Sequence record: NC_027349.1
Direction: 5' to 3' (one strand)
DNA from: Escherichia phage HY01
DNA: 64,000 nt
Shown here: positions 4,443 to 25,502 of the stretch, one piece after another
How positions within the stretch are numbered: position 1 is the stretch's first letter
Layout: the number at the start of each line of letters is the position of its first letter
Made by a program: the position numbers and the translations under genes
The notes under the pieces: generated by a model
Seen by the model: the letters and a program-made list of their open reading frames with translations, nothing else
What the model was told of the DNA's origin: nothing
Database searches by the model: none

Positions 4443-4725
4443 TCATATCCTCAATCTGTGATCTAGTAGTCTTCCAAAGAATACTAATGAGTTCATCGTT
4501 ATATGGCTGTTTTAGAATATCCCGACTTTTCTTGATAGCATATTCGTATTGAGCAAAATTATTGTTTTCAGCTGCAATCTGAGCGTGTTTATAAAGACGG
4601 TTCAGTTCGCGTTTATTTTTAGACAATAACTTATTTGCTTTTCTTTCTGCTTCAAGACGGTTCTTTTCTTCAATAGAAGAAATAAGCTTTTCCACTTCAT
4701 CATTAATTTCGGGTTTATCAGTCAT
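4408..4725 (-). CDS. Hypothetical protein (105 aa), charged/helical
   Basis: ORF track; co-oriented. Confidence 0.55.
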   Translation of the reverse strand: MTDKPEINDEVEKLISSIEEKNRLEAERKANKLLSKNKRELNRLYKHAQIAAENNNFAQYEYAIKKSRDILKQPYNDELISILWKTTRSQIEDMIDAYTRKIQAS

Positions 4726-4726
4726 A

Positions 4727-4945
4727 TTATTTCTCTAATATAAAATAAAAATCATCATCTGTTAAATGATACCGATAGTTTAATTCTACACCATTAGATT
4801 TAAAAGCGGTATCATACGGATTTTCTGGATCAATATCAATGTCAAGAGCTAAAACTTCCCTGAGATACATTTTAAGTAAATAGGGAATAGCTTCAACTTC
4901 AGGTATTTCTTCCAAGAATCCGGAGAGGTTAATCGTTAGCCTCAT
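4727..4945 (-). CDS. Hypothetical protein (72 aa)
   Basis: ORF track; immediately downstream of gene 55. Confidence 0.5.
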
Positions 4946-5486
4946 ATAAAAAATCCAAACTAGGAGAATCGTCTACAACACTTTTCTTTTCAGCCCCCGG
5001 TGTTCTATAGGTTGATTCTTCGTAATGCGTCATTTTATCGTAGATGTCTTGAATAAAAGTTTCATCTACTAACGCAACCATATCGTCGTCACGACTGTCA
5101 TAGACATTGTGAACGAAGTAACTATATTTCTTTGCAACTTCCTTACGTTCTTTTTTAATACGTTGGACGAATGCATTAAAACAAGCTTGAGTTATATATG
5201 CATGTGGGTTTTTATATTTCGTTTCATCAAAATTATGAAGTCCCTTAATAGAAGCTTCTATACCATCTGCAATCATTTCTTGTTTCCAAGACTGGGTGTA
5301 TCCTGAAAAGTTGAAACGTTTAGATAAGCCTTCTGCAATAAGCATAATGGCTAATCCGATAGTATCATTCTGACGAACTACTTTATTTGGGTCTTTATTA
5401 TTTGCTAATTCTGTTTTCCAATCAATAATAGCTTGTAAAAGCTCTTTATTGTTTACGTAATTATATTTAGGCTTAGTTTCTGACAT
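4929..5486 (-). CDS. 55: Late-transcription sigma factor gp55
   Basis: Track ORF is 187 aa; start at second Met ([21 protein letters not shown]) gives 185 aa as in T4 gp55. Confidence 0.9.
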
Positions 5487-17528: not shown

Positions 17529-18056
17529 TTATGCGAGTACCGTCTTTAACCGTTCTTCAAACTTCCGAAGAGTATTTTGGCGTTCAGCTCTTTGCTTTTT
17601 GTAAGTTTCAATACGCTCTGAAATGAGAGTGTATCGTTCATTTACTGATTCTTTCATAAAATCAGGAATTTCACGAGAAGCTTTAATCTCATCAAATTTA
17701 TCAATAACAGCTTGCTCTTCAGCAATTAAGTTATCATACATTAAAATATCTTTCTTGATGAACTCAATATCTTCTTGAGTTACACGAGATAATTTAGATG
17801 CTTTATCCTTTTTGTACTGTTCGTTAGTATCACGAGACCAATGTAATGTACGATTTTTATTCGTATTCTTGTAAATTTCTACAATACCAATCTCATCGAT
17901 AATAACGATCCAATTCCAACGGGATTTATAAATTTGTCCTCCATCAACTGTGATTTCACCTCCGATTGAGATGTCATTAAAGAACTTGCTTTGTGCTTCA
18001 GATTTAAATTTACCATCGTTGTAATTTACCAAGTTGAAAATATCTTTAGCATTCAT
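17529..18056 (-). CDS. Hypothetical protein (175 aa) with C-terminal coiled coil
   Basis: ORF track; preceded by a consensus early promoter and RBS GGAGGAAC. Confidence 0.55.
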   Translation of the reverse strand: MNAKDIFNLVNYNDGKFKSEAQSKFFNDISIGGEITVDGGQIYKSRWNWIVIIDEIGIVEIYKNTNKNRTLHWSRDTNEQYKKDKASKLSRVTQEDIEFIKKDILMYDNLIAEEQAVIDKFDEIKASREIPDFMKESVNERYTLISERIETYKKQRAERQNTLRKFEERLKTVLA

Positions 18057-19615: not shown

Positions 19616-20101
19616 TTATTCCATTTCTACTATATGCATGTTCTTTTTGCTATCAAAATATATGTTTTTAACTATTAACTCAGAATTAATTGGCAGTAAA
19701 AACTCTCTTTCATAATCTACCATACAAAGATTATCATAAAGCTTGTTAAGCTTATCATCGTCAGTTTGGCCAGATTCTTCAATTGCGATTAAATTTTCTA
19801 AAATGTCAATCATGGCAGTCGAATAGTCGAAAACGTTTGCATTTTTTAACACTACTAAAACATTAGTCATATAGCGTTCTGCCGCAAACGTTTCAGCTAT
19901 ATGAGACTCACTGCTAAAGGAAGTTATTCTTTTAAATTTGATTCTCCTATTAACTTCAAACTTATAAGATAGCACTTCCTCTATTGTAAGTCCTCTAAAA
20001 AGTATGTCTTTAATCTCAAGTTTGTCTTTAATGTAATCATTAACACGCTTATGATTAAAATCACTAATTTTGTTGCCAAGGCATTGCATTAAAATATGCA
20101 T
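19616..20101 (-). CDS. Hypothetical protein (161 aa)
   Basis: ORF track. Confidence 0.55.
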   Translation of the reverse strand: MHILMQCLGNKISDFNHKRVNDYIKDKLEIKDILFRGLTIEEVLSYKFEVNRRIKFKRITSFSSESHIAETFAAERYMTNVLVVLKNANVFDYSTAMIDILENLIAIEESGQTDDDKLNKLYDNLCMVDYEREFLLPINSELIVKNIYFDSKKNMHIVEME

Positions 20102-20228: not shown

Positions 20229-21242
20229 TCATTTATAATAACTTCGGTGGTTTTCAAGATAAACCCTCTCAAGGAAGTCATCCCAGAAACTCATGTCTAC
20301 TTTTTGCTGCATACCGTTCTTAGAAGCTTCAATGGATGCTGCTTCTACTTGATCGACCACATCTTCCAAAAACTCTTGAACAGTTTTAAATGGGTGTTTA
20401 CCCAGCTTCACGTCGAGAATAAATGGAGCGTCTTGAAGTGGATAAACCAAGTCACCAGTTTTGTAAATTTCCAATAGTTGGAGTCCACCACGACAAGCAT
20501 GACTTAGAGCTTTCCAGTCAATGCCCTCATTCGCTTCAGCCTTACGAGCACGTTCGCCATATTCAGCATCAAGTTTATTCAAAGACTGCTTAAGCTCAAT
20601 AAGAGAAAGTGTTGTCTGATATTTACGACCCAACACGGTATAGAACGTTTGCGGGCCTGTTTTCTCATGGTTATGGAATACCCATTCACAGAACTCGTTT
20701 TCAGGGAGTCTGTGTTTGATATCTTCTACCTTAGTACGACGAAGTCTATCAGGAATTCCTTCTTGATAGTCGACCCACTGGTCAGGGATTTGATTAACTA
20801 CTTTCAATACATCACGTAATGCGGCCAAACGAGAACCCTTGACACCGTATTTAGAAGCTTGCTTGCGGACATATCCTAAATAGGATTTCATGTTAGTTGT
20901 ATAAAACCGTGAACGATTGTCTTGGATAAATTTCCATACATCAGGCAAATCAGATTTAACCACTAGTTCAGGCGGAGTGTGAAGCATATCCAATGCTACA
21001 GTTTCACCATCTGCTGCTAATTTAAAGAAATACTTAAGACTGTACAGTTCATGGTCAATATCATCTTTGGTGTTTTTAGATGATGTGTTGTTAGTGTTTT
21101 TACTCATATGCTCTTTAACATTTCCGATAAGAATATCGCGAGCAGGAGGAACAAAGATTTCTTTAAAATCTACATCAGATTCTGGAGTAGAAGTTCCATA
21201 AAGATGACTACCAAAATAGCTTTTCATTACTGTTTTCATCAT
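20229..21242 (-). CDS. Pol-beta-superfamily nucleotidyltransferase-like protein (337 aa)
   Basis: N-terminal motif YFGSHLYGTSTPESDVDF fits the G[SG]x9-13Dh[DE] NTase signature; remainder has no motif I recognise. Confidence 0.55.
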   Translation of the reverse strand: MMKTVMKSYFGSHLYGTSTPESDVDFKEIFVPPARDILIGNVKEHMSKNTNNTSSKNTKDDIDHELYSLKYFFKLAADGETVALDMLHTPPELVVKSDLPDVWKFIQDNRSRFYTTNMKSYLGYVRKQASKYGVKGSRLAALRDVLKVVNQIPDQWVDYQEGIPDRLRRTKVEDIKHRLPENEFCEWVFHNHEKTGPQTFYTVLGRKYQTTLSLIELKQSLNKLDAEYGERARKAEANEGIDWKALSHACRGGLQLLEIYKTGDLVYPLQDAPFILDVKLGKHPFKTVQEFLEDVVDQVEAASIEASKNGMQQKVDMSFWDDFLERVYLENHRSYYK

Positions 21243-21700
21243 TCAGCCTTATATTCAATAACAGGACATACTTTAGCTTTACGCGCTTTTAAAAATTCGA
21301 CGATAATAGATTTCTTGGGTTGAATAGGAGGTAAACCTTTATACGCCCTATCAATATTTTCTACATGTAAAGCATAATCCTTTTTCCATTTATAATCTTT
21401 ATATTTTTCATGCAATTGTGCAGGAATAACAAATGAACCGATAATAAGTAAAACAAGCAAAATGGCAAGTATAAATGCTGCTGGAATAAGAGTCCATAAA
21501 CTACCAAAAATAAGCCATTTCTGTATGATTTCTGCACAGATGATAGTTAGACCTGCGAGTATAGTACATCCGAAAAAAGAAACGAAAAATGTAGGAATAA
21601 CAATAGACCAAAAATACGCGCATAGTGTCTTAGGTCGTTTCCATTCATCATTAAACATTTTGAATAATTTATAGTGCCAAGAGCTTTCATTAATAATCAT
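21239..21700 (-). CDS. Multi-pass membrane protein (153 aa)
   Basis: Three hydrophobic helices (PTFFVSFFGCTILAGLTIICA, LIFGSLWTLIPAAFILAILLVLLIIGSFVIP). Confidence 0.55.
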   Translation of the reverse strand: MIINESSWHYKLFKMFNDEWKRPKTLCAYFWSIVIPTFFVSFFGCTILAGLTIICAEIIQKWLIFGSLWTLIPAAFILAILLVLLIIGSFVIPAQLHEKYKDYKWKKDYALHVENIDRAYKGLPPIQPKKSIIVEFLKARKAKVCPVIEYKAE

Positions 21701-21702
21701 AA

Positions 21703-22224
21703 TTATCCTTTCATTGAAGGTGTAACAGTTGTTAAATACTTAATCATAGCTTCAGCTTCTGATTTTGATAATGAAATTTCTCCATTGTTTTGACGAATAG
21801 AAATAAAATCCGGATGACGGTCACCACCAGCTTTCAAAACACACATATAAGTATCAGTTTCATCTTCAATATTTGAAATGATTGAAGCAGTTCCACATGA
21901 ATGTGGTTTTTGATAAATCAATACGGCTTTTCTTCCACCGTTTGACTGTTCATAAACTTTTAACACATCAAACAAATCAATTCTTTTATCAATAGCTAAG
22001 ATGTTGTTTTCATCTTCAATGTTAAATCCTTCGGATACTTCATAAAGTGTCACCCATAAATCACCGATGTCAATAACAACATTTACTTTTCCATGACTTT
22101 CAAGAGCATTACAAATTTTCTTGATTTCGTCATAACTCATTTTAATAATATCATCTCCTTGAATAAGGAAGATGTCATTTTTAAATTCAACACGAATTAA
22201 ACCACTTCCACTTGAAATAAACAT
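21703..22224 (-). CDS. Hypothetical protein (173 aa); paralog of 22231-22788
   Basis: C-terminus SKSEAEAMIKYLTTVTPSM resembles TKDEAIALKTYLDSVIPTM of the neighbour. Confidence 0.55.
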   Translation of the reverse strand: MFISSGSGLIRVEFKNDIFLIQGDDIIKMSYDEIKKICNALESHGKVNVVIDIGDLWVTLYEVSEGFNIEDENNILAIDKRIDLFDVLKVYEQSNGGRKAVLIYQKPHSCGTASIISNIEDETDTYMCVLKAGGDRHPDFISIRQNNGEISLSKSEAEAMIKYLTTVTPSMKG

Positions 22225-22230
22225 ATTTCC

Positions 22231-22788
22231 TCACTTTGAAATCATAGTTGGAATGACAGAATCAAGATAAGTCTTTAGCGCAATAGCTTCGTCTTTGGTA
22301 AATGTGACAATATGTGATCGAAAATCGTCAATTTGGCGAATAGTTAAGACATCTCCCTCTTCATAACATTTTGATACATTTAAAAGAGTTTCATCATTCT
22401 GATTGTAAGAGTTAGTAATAATAGCATTGCAATTTTTGAGCCATTTTAAACTATGTTTTCTTTCATTAGAATAATAAAAATATTTAATCTTAGCTATAAA
22501 ACTATCCCAATGGATAACTGATAAACACATTGACTCACTTTTAATATTAAATCCTGGGCATGAAGAATAAAAATGAATTTTGTGCTCATCATTGATGCTT
22601 ACTATTTTATCAGTATAAGGATATTCAATTTGGGTTAAATGAATAATTTCGCTAGGCGTAAAATATAGCATATCGTCTTCTTGCGTCAAACGATACATGT
22701 TATTTACTTTTTCTATAGCCAATTCACCAAAAAGCGGACTAACTTCTAATACTAATCGTTTCATATTGATTCTCTTCGACTCACTCAC
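22231..22788 (-). CDS. Hypothetical protein (185 aa); paralog of 21703-22224
   Basis: Shared C-terminal motif with the neighbour. Confidence 0.55.
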   Translation of the reverse strand: MSESKRINMKRLVLEVSPLFGELAIEKVNNMYRLTQEDDMLYFTPSEIIHLTQIEYPYTDKIVSINDEHKIHFYSSCPGFNIKSESMCLSVIHWDSFIAKIKYFYYSNERKHSLKWLKNCNAIITNSYNQNDETLLNVSKCYEEGDVLTIRQIDDFRSHIVTFTKDEAIALKTYLDSVIPTMISK

Positions 22789-22955
22789 AATTACATACTC
22801 CTTTGAATAATATCAATAATGTTGTTCACTAGATTATAAGTAAACATTGGGTAATTATATTGAATCATCACATACACAACAAACAAAACTTTCATTCTCT
22901 TCTCCTTGGCAGTTGGCAAGATTACTATACCATAACCTTGCCAACTTGTAAACCA

Positions 22956-23129
22956 TTAAATGACGTTTTCAATAAAATTCTGAAGCTTTGTGTGAGCATC
23001 AACCATGATTTTCATTTCTTCCTTTGCGAAAGCTGTACCTCTTTCTCGAGAAGAATACTCATAGTCAGAAACTGCATTAGCATATTCTTCAATTAGCTTC
23101 ATTAAAAACATCTGCTTTTCAGTTTTCAT
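22956..23129 (-). CDS. Small hypothetical protein (57 aa), below ORF-track cutoff
   Basis: Manual translation MKTEKQMFLMKLIEEYANAVSDYEYSSRERGTAFAKEEMKIMVDAHTKLQNFIENVI; AGGTGG 5 nt upstream; 11-nt overlap with upstream ORF. Confidence 0.3.
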   Translation of the reverse strand: MKTEKQMFLMKLIEEYANAVSDYEYSSRERGTAFAKEEMKIMVDAHTKLQNFIENVI

Positions 23130-23313
23130 TATTCCACCTAATCATTTCAAGATATTGAACTAACTTAGCTTTGGATTTATCCAAATCCTTTTTAGCTGCT
23201 TCTATACCATCGTACGAATATCCTTCACAATGTTCAACTGCCAATTGGTATGAATCTATTTCAATATCACGTGCTAATTTAATGATTTTTTCAAACTGTT
23301 CACGTGTCAGCAT
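23119..23313 (-). CDS. Hypothetical protein (64 aa)
   Basis: ORF track. Confidence 0.45.
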   Translation of the reverse strand: MLTREQFEKIIKLARDIEIDSYQLAVEHCEGYSYDGIEAAKKDLDKSKAKLVQYLEMIRWNNEN

Positions 23314-23315
23314 AC

Positions 23316-23534
23316 TTAAACTCTCGTATTGTGATCGATAATTTCATCAAGAAACATATCTAAAGCTTCTAAAGCATTATCAACTTTAGCTTCAAATTCT
23401 TCAATACCTGATAAGGCAAAGTTAATGCGTTCCTCATCTGCTTTGCGAATTAAAGCTACCAATTCTTTAATTTTATCTGCTTGTTCGATATTAATCATTA
23501 TTCCACCACATATGAAAGAGAGAATATTGCACAC
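23316..23534 (-). CDS. Hypothetical acidic protein (72 aa)
   Basis: ORF track. Confidence 0.45.
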
Positions 23535-23759: not shown

Positions 23760-23777
23760 AGTCTCCCGAAGGAGACT
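23760..23777 (-). terminator. Tetraloop hairpin AGTCTCC-CGAA-GGAGACT plus T-run
   Basis: Perfect inverted repeat 3' of ORF 23782-24168. Confidence 0.5.
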
Positions 23778-25316: not shown

Positions 25317-25502
25317 TTAAAGCGTATTCACATAAGCTATTAATTCGTTTTCTTTCTTATCAAACCGGTCAGCAAATTCTTCTTGTTGTTCGGGAGATAG
25401 CGGGCCGTATTCATCATAAAAGGTGTTTGCTTCTGCATTCTCATCTAGAAGTTCATGGATAAGCTCAAACAATTTATCTTTTTGTTCTTTACTCAGACTC
25501 AT
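25317..25502 (-). CDS. Hypothetical acidic protein (61 aa)
   Basis: ORF track. Confidence 0.45.
   Translation of the reverse strand: MSLSKEQKDKLFELIHELLDENAEANTFYDEYGPLSPEQQEEFADRFDKKENELIAYVNTL

Follow-up and report, generated by a model that had tools for sequence, protein, structure and literature searches.

Two adjacent minus-strand genes at positions 21703–22788 of the window (the whole 64,000-nt stretch of Escherichia phage HY01 DNA analysed here) are, judged by sequence, real tandem paralogs of the T4 MobD.1 (UniProt Y05I) family. The explanation that best accounts for all observations jointly, to which we assign a probability of about 0.55, is that the two proteins are old paralogs acting as dimeric, three-repeat PUR-like accessory proteins with a variable N-terminal platform. 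The pair itself is not new: hundreds of T-even phage entries in the databases match its genes at 92–100% identity, the family is already catalogued (PF24448/PF24449, PHROG 1502), and the two genes are already labelled 'MobD.1-2' (185 aa) and 'MobD.1-1' (173 aa) in the record of Yersinia phage PST. What is added here, while nothing categorically new, is a structural reading, in which three PUR-like repeats are predicted and the conserved C-terminal motif is the helix of a probable dimerisation half-domain, together with the evolutionary history of a hyperplastic T-even locus.

Two tandem members of the MobD.1 family

The two open reading frames (ORFs) of 173 and 185 aa that the initial annotation had described are both present on the minus strand in the ORF list. 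The upstream member of the pair, the mobD.1 ortholog of 185 aa (22231..22788, minus strand), starts with GTG and has an AAGGAG 9 nt upstream of this codon. Many records annotate a 177-aa form of MobD.1, which would result from an in-frame ATG at 22764. The downstream member, of 173 aa (21703..22224, minus strand; PEC04_0035), starts with ATG, and each of the two ORFs contains both PF24449 and PF24448. An intergenic gap of 6 nt separates mobD.1 from the 173-aa gene. The gene of a small membrane protein of 153 aa (21239..21700, minus strand; PHROG 944, 'membrane protein') starts 2 nt past the stop codon of the 173-aa gene and overlaps by 4 nt with nrdC.11 (20229..21242, minus strand), which encodes an RlaP-like nucleotidyltransferase (Pfam RlaP, E 2.7e-11; PHROG 388) and forms the downstream end of the module.

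On the T4 map, the pair region corresponds to the early, minus-strand tk–rI–mobD.x–nrdC.11–nrdC.10 segment. A pattern scan returned a sigma-70-type, T4-early-like promoter match at 22924..22952 on the minus strand (GTTTACA, 17 nt, TG-n-TATAGT), with 10 of 12 matches and an extended −10 element. This candidate lies upstream of the pair, with a mobD.2-like mini-ORF (22791–22895) in between, and the pair is probably expressed early. Around the pair, a 4-kb stretch matches Escherichia phage PEC04 (KR233165.1, Tequatrovirus) at 100% identity; the GenBank record of this phage is missing the CDS for mobD.1. The 4-kb stretch is also 93–98% identical to hundreds of T-even phages, T2 and T6 included.

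The initial annotation had recognised the pair by a shared C-terminal motif, which is indeed found in both proteins: SKSEAEAMIKYLTTVTPSM at residues 153–171 of the 173-aa protein (21712–21768, minus strand) and TKDEAIALKTYLDSVIPTM at residues 164–182 of MobD.1 (22243–22299, minus strand), in each case at the end of the C-terminal domain. The similarity extends over the full length of the proteins rather than being confined to the C-terminus. BLASTP aligned residues 3–171 of the 173-aa protein with residues 16–182 of the 185-aa protein at 27% identity over 176 columns (E = 5e-8, single comparison), and both Pfam domains are common to the two proteins. PF24449 (T4_y05I_N; gathering score 24.9 bits) matched the 173-aa protein with 114.9 bits (E 3e-33) and the 185-aa protein with 133 bits (E 7e-39); the respective values for PF24448 (T4_y05I_C; gathering score 27 bits) were 83.4 bits (E 1.5e-23) and 73.5 bits (E 1.8e-20). 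PHROG 1502 was matched end to end by both proteins (E 6e-66 and 1e-79), and the family HMM found exactly two members within the window, the 173-aa and 185-aa ORFs. We also considered nrdC.8 (175 aa, window 17529–18056) as a third paralog and rejected it, its sequence being unlike those of the pair and the family HMM finding just the two ORFs.

T4 mobD.1 has its ortholog, in position as well as in sequence, in the 185-aa gene, whose product shares 87% identity with T4 MobD.1; relatives occur in 727 phage records. Both members of the pair share with the T4 MobD.1/Y05I family the two Pfam models, PHROG 1502 and the position upstream of nrdC.11. The 173-aa protein, of which copies at least 90% identical occur in 432 phage records, is 27–31% identical to any MobD.1 and represents a deeply diverged second branch of the Y05I family, a lineage that T4 lacks. 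A profile search of 1.84 billion representatives retrieved 29 family proteins only, all from T4-like phage material, and none of these 29 carries a domain fusion that would hint at function.

Age and origin of the duplication

Local duplication followed by divergence had been proposed as the origin of the pair. The head-to-tail position and the paralogy agree with this proposal, whereas the degree of divergence shows that the duplication is not a recent one. At the nucleotide level, mobD.1 and the 173-aa gene no longer resemble each other (best blastn E = 0.12), and the 27% identity of the paralogs is lower than that of MobD.1 orthologs between genera (33–48%). In an NJ tree, the 173-aa clade is placed outside the Tequatrovirus plus Mosigvirus MobD.1 clade with 97.5% bootstrap. 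Since neither residual DNA similarity nor a 173-aa clade nested inside the local ortholog clade was found, and the paralogs are so dissimilar, we conclude that the duplication is not recent. The tandem position nevertheless favours a local duplication, which would then have to be old or to have been followed by accelerated divergence. The second copy has mobD.1 on one side and the membrane-protein gene on the other, two genes that adjoin each other in RB69, JS10 and other genera. It may stem from an ancient duplication with subsequent losses, may have evolved fast, or may derive from another phage.

The paralogs still recombine, as shown by a natural chimera found on six contigs (P0011). In this gene, nucleotides 1–387 of mobD.1 are fused to nucleotides 361–520 of the 173-aa gene at a 9-bp microhomology (GATGAAACT) that lies in register, and the chimera occurs in a single-copy context.

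Copy number and synteny across phages

Comparison of one-copy and two-copy phages gave a clear distribution. Two copies are confined to Tequatrovirus, where they are the majority state (e.g. PEC04, T6, RB33, wV7, KIT03, PST and NBEco003), and RB69 (Mosigvirus) and JS10 (Dhakavirus) have a single family gene, followed by the membrane protein and then by nrdC.11. T4 has the order mobD.1, mobD (HNH homing endonuclease), nrdC.11, and its mobD cassette fills the exact slot that is occupied in PEC04 by the 173-aa paralog together with the membrane-protein gene; this T4-type mobD junction is present in 47 records only. In T2, each of the two family genes contains two frameshifts. A seemingly divergent 173-aa allele in T2 (55.6% tblastn match) proved to be an artefact of reading through the two frameshifts, the allele being the ordinary one, broken. 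In Yersinia phage fHe-Yen9-01 (Tegunavirus), a 74-aa C-domain protein stands alone at the corresponding place. Among 15 IMG/VR loci, sampled by means of the C-terminal motif, three have two copies (all Tequatrovirus-like), a single full-length copy is present in eight, and in the remaining four the gene encodes the C-domain only. The hyperplastic T-even locus can thus be described by five states: two copies, replacement by an endonuclease cassette in T4, decay in T2, a microhomology chimera, and a single copy or C-domain-only gene in other genera.

The early tk–nrdC position, directly upstream of the membrane protein and nrdC.11, is common to PEC04, RB69, JS10, fHe-Yen9-01, NBEco003 and T6. 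Synteny with nrdC.11 is kept in all sampled genera, and nrdC.11 is found downstream of the family gene in all 15 IMG/VR loci; a homolog of the membrane protein lies directly 3' of the family gene in RB69, JS10, L018 and 12 of the 15 loci. Across genera, the membrane protein retains 28–32% identity, compared with 68–84% for nrdC.11. The family gene(s), the small membrane protein and NrdC.11 form a conserved three-gene module that may be a functional one, or the synteny may reflect mere general collinearity of T4-like genomes.

Predicted fold and repeat architecture

Monomer models were generated with AlphaFold2 from 17 sequences for the 173-aa protein and from 23 diverse sequences for the 185-aa protein. 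Both models show two beta-beta-beta-beta-alpha units in the N-terminal domain and a C-terminal sheet-plus-helix unit. DSSP of the models assigned the order E-E-E-E-H twice in the N-domain, with pLDDT values of 82–98. The 185-aa model has a mean pLDDT of 87.5, and its C-terminal domain (residues 113–182; 22243..22452, minus strand), the third beta-sheet-plus-helix repeat and putative dimerisation half-domain, reaches about 80–90. In the 173-aa model, the N-terminal two-repeat domain (residues 2–95; 21940..22221, minus strand) is confident and the C-terminal domain (residues 102–171; 21712..21921, minus strand), which is the part matched by PF24448, is of low confidence (pLDDT 40–60). The C-domain model has five strands, not four as in a Pur-alpha repeat.

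The top structural neighbours of the models are Pur-alpha, Whirly p24 and StWhy2, MRP1/2 and PC4-like proteins, including the phage T5 PC4 homolog. Structural comparison gave scores of 10.2 and 11.1 for Drosophila Pur-alpha repeats I–II, 7.1 and 8.3 for Whirly p24, 6.7 and 7.7 for StWhy2, 7.2–8.3 for Trypanosome MRP1/MRP2, and 8.4 and 7.0 for an SsgA-like protein. Scores of 7.5, 7.2 and 6.7 were obtained with Drosophila Pur-alpha repeat III (59/62 residues), human PURA repeat III and Borrelia Pur-alpha, respectively. Significant 3D similarity to structures solved for the PC4-like superfamily (PUR/Whirly fold) is therefore present in the predicted models. Repetition within the chain is also visible at the profile level: hhalign matched repeat 1 to the C-domain with a probability of 94% (E 1.6e-7), pairing '..ltQeDd.i.~s..E...i' of repeat 1 with 'I.Q..d.V.fTK.EA.aLv.YL' of the C-domain over a strand-turn-strand-helix. 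Repeat 2 could not be matched by hhalign to either repeat 1 or repeat 3. Both proteins are predicted by these models to be three-repeat PC4-like proteins, arranged as in eukaryotic Pur-alpha.

In the models, the C-terminal helix noticed in the initial annotation is the helix of the third repeat. It is kept as TKxEAxALxxYLxxVIPTM across 23 diverse family members, and the motif is the best-conserved part of the family, including stand-alone C-domain proteins of 67–87 aa.

The likeness to Pur-alpha (PDB 3K44, 5FGP, 5FGO, 8CHW) lies in the repeat unit, a four-stranded sheet plus helix, and in the presence of three repeats, a two-repeat domain being followed by a single repeat in both Pur-alpha and the predicted phage models. 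In contrast, there is no detectable sequence homology: neither protein has a PurA (PF04845) or Whirly Pfam match at E ≤ 1, and a profile search of all PDB sequences at E ≤ 10 found nothing relevant. The Gly-rich and Gln/Glu-rich tails of Pur-alpha are missing from the phage proteins. Borrelia Pur-alpha, the phage T5 PC4 homolog, Whirly and MRP1–MRP2 likewise have no sequence relationship to the phage proteins, and a BFVD viral fold search found the Y05I family itself and nothing else. The SsgA-like proteins (PDB 3CM1) are an unrelated lineage without the third repeat, in which a Whirly-like fold serves actinomycete cell-division protein contacts; we know of no functional link between them and phage biology.

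The third repeat as a putative dimerisation half-domain

In Pur-alpha, repeats I–II pair within the molecule as one domain, and repeat III dimerises between molecules (PMC4764581, PMC7549692), and a lone PUR-type repeat is considered unlikely to be a stable folded entity by itself (PMC7549692). Because stand-alone C-domain proteins bearing the family motif exist, and because a lone repeat is unlikely to be folded, dimerisation through repeat 3 is the most economical reading, which we infer by analogy with Pur-alpha. By this proposal, repeats 1 and 2 would pack as an intramolecular domain, and the C-terminal third repeat would be a half-domain, completed only by a second copy, as in Pur-alpha repeat III and in Borrelia Pur-alpha. 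The proteins would then act as dimers via the conserved C-terminal repeat, either as homodimers or as MobD.1/paralog heterodimers, and two fast-evolving N-terminal binding platforms would be exposed on every dimer. Heterodimerisation is not implied by the data, since the C-domains of the two paralogs share only 36% identity. Oligomeric state differs among proteins of this fold, Borrelia Pur-alpha being a type II homodimer and Whirly proteins being tetramers.

Ligand and function

The literature found on MobD.1/Y05I function is limited to the naming of the mobD insertion site, where mobD.1 is a table entry as the gene flanking that site (PMC2988022), and to one deletion report, in which genome-reduced T4 mutants without the nrdC.11–mobD.3 fragment were viable (PMC9825161). 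Their replacement in T4, their frameshifts in T2 and their loss from viable T4 mutants show the genes to be dispensable and accessory. Family members are acidic, with pI values of 4.2–5.9; only two of the stand-alone C-domain proteins are higher, at 6.7 and 9.2. The net charge of full-length members ranges from −3 to −22 and that of the N-domains from −3 to −12 (N-domain pI 4.2–5.8), a composition unlike the basic or aromatic surface expected of single-stranded nucleic-acid binders with this fold. As to the ligand, a protein partner or nucleic-acid mimicry seems to us slightly likelier than classical binding of ssDNA or RNA.

The initial annotation had pointed out that diverged duplicates in phage accessory regions often target variable host factors. 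A tentative reading along these lines, which we hold to be less likely than not, is that the proteins serve host take-over or counter-defence, the acidic dimers binding a host or phage protein or mimicking nucleic acid, possibly together with the membrane protein, and the paralogs and alleles covering target variants. The acidic composition is consistent with this, as are the dispensability of the genes on laboratory hosts and their location in an accessory region that is probably transcribed early and has a T4-early-like promoter match. The N-domain is polymorphic between near-identical phages: MobD.1 of NBEco003 is 48% identical to that of PEC04 and stands beside a 173-aa gene that is 97% identical, and between the allele classes of each gene the N-terminal domain shows 34–39% identity and the C-terminal domain 56–78%. 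The genes also adjoin the membrane protein, which evolves similarly fast, and the SsgA-like and T7SS-chaperone proteins provide examples of the PUR/Whirly fold working via protein contacts. However, neither protein has a match in PADLOC or in other defence, anti-defence or NCBIfam annotation, gene-wide positive selection is not seen (dN/dS within allele classes is well below 1), and the allele mosaicism may stem from recombination in a hyperplastic region rather than from target selection. If both the dimer and the host-factor idea are true, a function would be assigned to one T4 early gene among the many that are uncharacterised, and the PC4-like fold would gain protein-directed roles in phages.

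It is also possible, though slightly less likely still, that both proteins are PUR/Whirly-like in function as well as in fold, binding ssDNA or RNA via the beta-sheet faces of the N-domain and having an early regulatory role in transcription, translation, replication or RNA repair, with the paralogs differing in the sequence recognised. All top structural neighbours are single-stranded nucleic-acid binders, and Whirly, MRP1–MRP2 and PC4-like domains are basic, proven nucleic-acid binders. The proximity to the RlaP-like nucleotidyltransferase ('RNA repair pathway') is conserved, Pfam labels the family 'putative transcription factor', and a review of PC4-like proteins stresses their common nucleic-acid-binding surfaces (PMC7549692). 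Against this, the N-domains are negatively charged, and the residues conserved in the surface loops are acidic ones (QEDD, N-I-E-x-E). In Pur-alpha, nucleic-acid binding is mediated by the KNR/F motif on the sheet of repeats I and II (PMC4764581), whereas inspection of the family alignments shows that the K-x-N-x-R...F pattern is not conserved. The acidity of the family and the missing KNR/F motif together weaken the classical reading. The Pfam label presumably derives from the single-stranded nucleic-acid binding that the fold suggests; based on fold alone and at odds with the acidic composition, it should be used with caution.

A bolder and unlikely extension would make the MobD.1 family a phage-borne, sequence-unrelated counterpart of Pur-alpha, with type I and type II PC4-like domains in one chain. 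The Tequatrovirus paralogs would heterodimerise via their C-terminal repeats, and the acidic dimer, mimicking nucleic acid or serving as an adaptor, would together with the membrane protein neutralise a variable host factor. To our knowledge, no type II PC4-like heterodimer has been documented yet. The combination of type I and type II PC4-like domains is discussed only for eukaryotic Pur-alpha in the 2020 review (PMC7549692).

Selection on the two genes

Both genes are intact in nine of nine sampled phages. Pairwise dN/dS within an allele class, calculated gene-wide for these nine phages, is about 0.07–0.36; the 173-aa gene has a median of 0.13, as low as that of mobD.1 or lower, against 0.055 for nrdC.11. 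Both genes are functional and under purifying selection, with dN/dS of about 0.1–0.25, and on these values we reject pseudogene status of the second copy. That the 173-aa copy is a redundant, decaying duplicate without a function of its own, the motif being residual ancestry, is very improbable: the copy is missing from T4 and other genera, frameshifted in T2 and, in some metagenomic phages, fused with mobD.1 to one chimeric gene, but it is intact in 432 records at 92–100% amino-acid identity and its dN/dS is no higher than that of mobD.1. A distinct allele of the 173-aa gene found in metagenomes (P0010), 56% identical, is intact as well.

Replacement, possible decay and recombination of the family genes

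In T4, the mobD HNH homing-endonuclease cassette (4606-5385 of the T4 locus L003) occupies exactly the position (21239-22224) at which PEC04 and most Tequatrovirus genomes carry the 173-aa paralog (21703-22224, minus strand) and the 153-aa membrane gene that follows it (21239-21700, minus strand). The T4-type junction was found in 47 phage records only. The target of MobD might lie within the segment replaced in T4.

In phage T2 (locus L001, 4700-5790), each of the two family genes carries two frameshifts, as read from one of four T2 records that scored identically by megablast across the 4 kb around them, and the record annotates both genes as several short hypothetical ORFs. If the frameshifts are real, both family genes would be pseudogenes in T2.

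Two rearrangements were found in metagenomic sequences. In the natural chimeric gene encoding P0011 (L015:3001-3540; also in loci L016 and L017), mobD.1 nt 1-387 are continued by the 173-aa gene from its nt 361 to 520, with an in-register 9-bp microhomology, GATGAAACT, at the junction, which reduces the pair to one copy; the chimera is present on six metagenomic contigs. The second protein, P0045 (210 aa), consists of approximately the first 50 residues of MobD.1 fused to the C-terminal part of NrdC.11. This arrangement implies a deletion in which the paralog and the membrane gene were lost, along with the 5' portion of nrdC.11 and everything in mobD.1 beyond those first residues.

Neighboring genes and transcription signals

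A small membrane protein is encoded directly after the MobD.1-family gene in nearly all genera sampled, with RB69ORF104c, JS10_0090 and L018:2299-2772 as counterparts of the gene at 21239-21700. Its ends are conserved (N-terminus MIINExSWHYK, C-terminus K..CP..EYK). The protein evolves fast, with a cross-genus identity of 28-32% compared to 68-84% for nrdC.11. The small membrane protein may be a functional partner of the MobD.1-family protein.

Downstream of rI.-1, pattern matching identified a strong hairpin resembling a terminator, AGTCTCC-TTCG-GGAGACT with a T-run after it (23760-23777, minus strand), and a match to a T4-early-like promoter upstream of the mobD.2-like mini-ORF (22924-22952, minus strand). 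Together, these two matches suggest a separate early transcription unit to which the pair would belong.

Just upstream of the pair lies another, bigger group of small paralogs (57-64 aa), the equivalents of mobD.2a (22956-23129), mobD.3 (23119-23313), mobD.4 (23316-23498) and tk.1 (25317-25502), all on the minus strand and all four matching Pfam DUF7438 with E values of 7e-13 to 4e-19. In related phages, the region contains up to five copies.

Small relatives with a single repeat may also be dispersed through the same region, as hinted by weak similarities: Pfam DUF7189 matches the strand-turn-strand-helix motif of repeat 1, the first beta-sheet-plus-helix unit, at residues 16-41 of the 173-aa protein (E 3e-4, below the cut-off), and the family HMM matches neighboring ORFs of ~66 aa (L018:989-1189 and L006:2739-2936) at E about 0.04.

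Between nrdC.10 and nrdC.11, a 161-aa ORF (19616-20101, minus strand) matches the PHROG of Mod-type RNA-polymerase ADP-ribosyltransferases (E 2e-23), and related contigs have a 161-aa counterpart with Pfam Mod_ADP_RT at the same position. The ORF is shorter than ModA and ModB, and T4 has no gene at this position.

Annotation of mobD.1 in public records

The PEC04 GenBank record, KR233165.1, has no CDS feature for the 185-aa mobD.1 ortholog (22231-22788, minus strand), although this gene is conserved, has an intact reading frame and evolves under purifying selection; its GTG start is the likely cause of the omission. Wrong names for MobD.1 homologs are widespread in GenBank and RefSeq, among them 'integrase and recombinase', 'prohead core scaffold protein' and 'molybdopterin-guanine dinucleotide biosynthesis protein MobD', the last of which looks like a mix-up with mob, an unrelated gene name used in bacteria.
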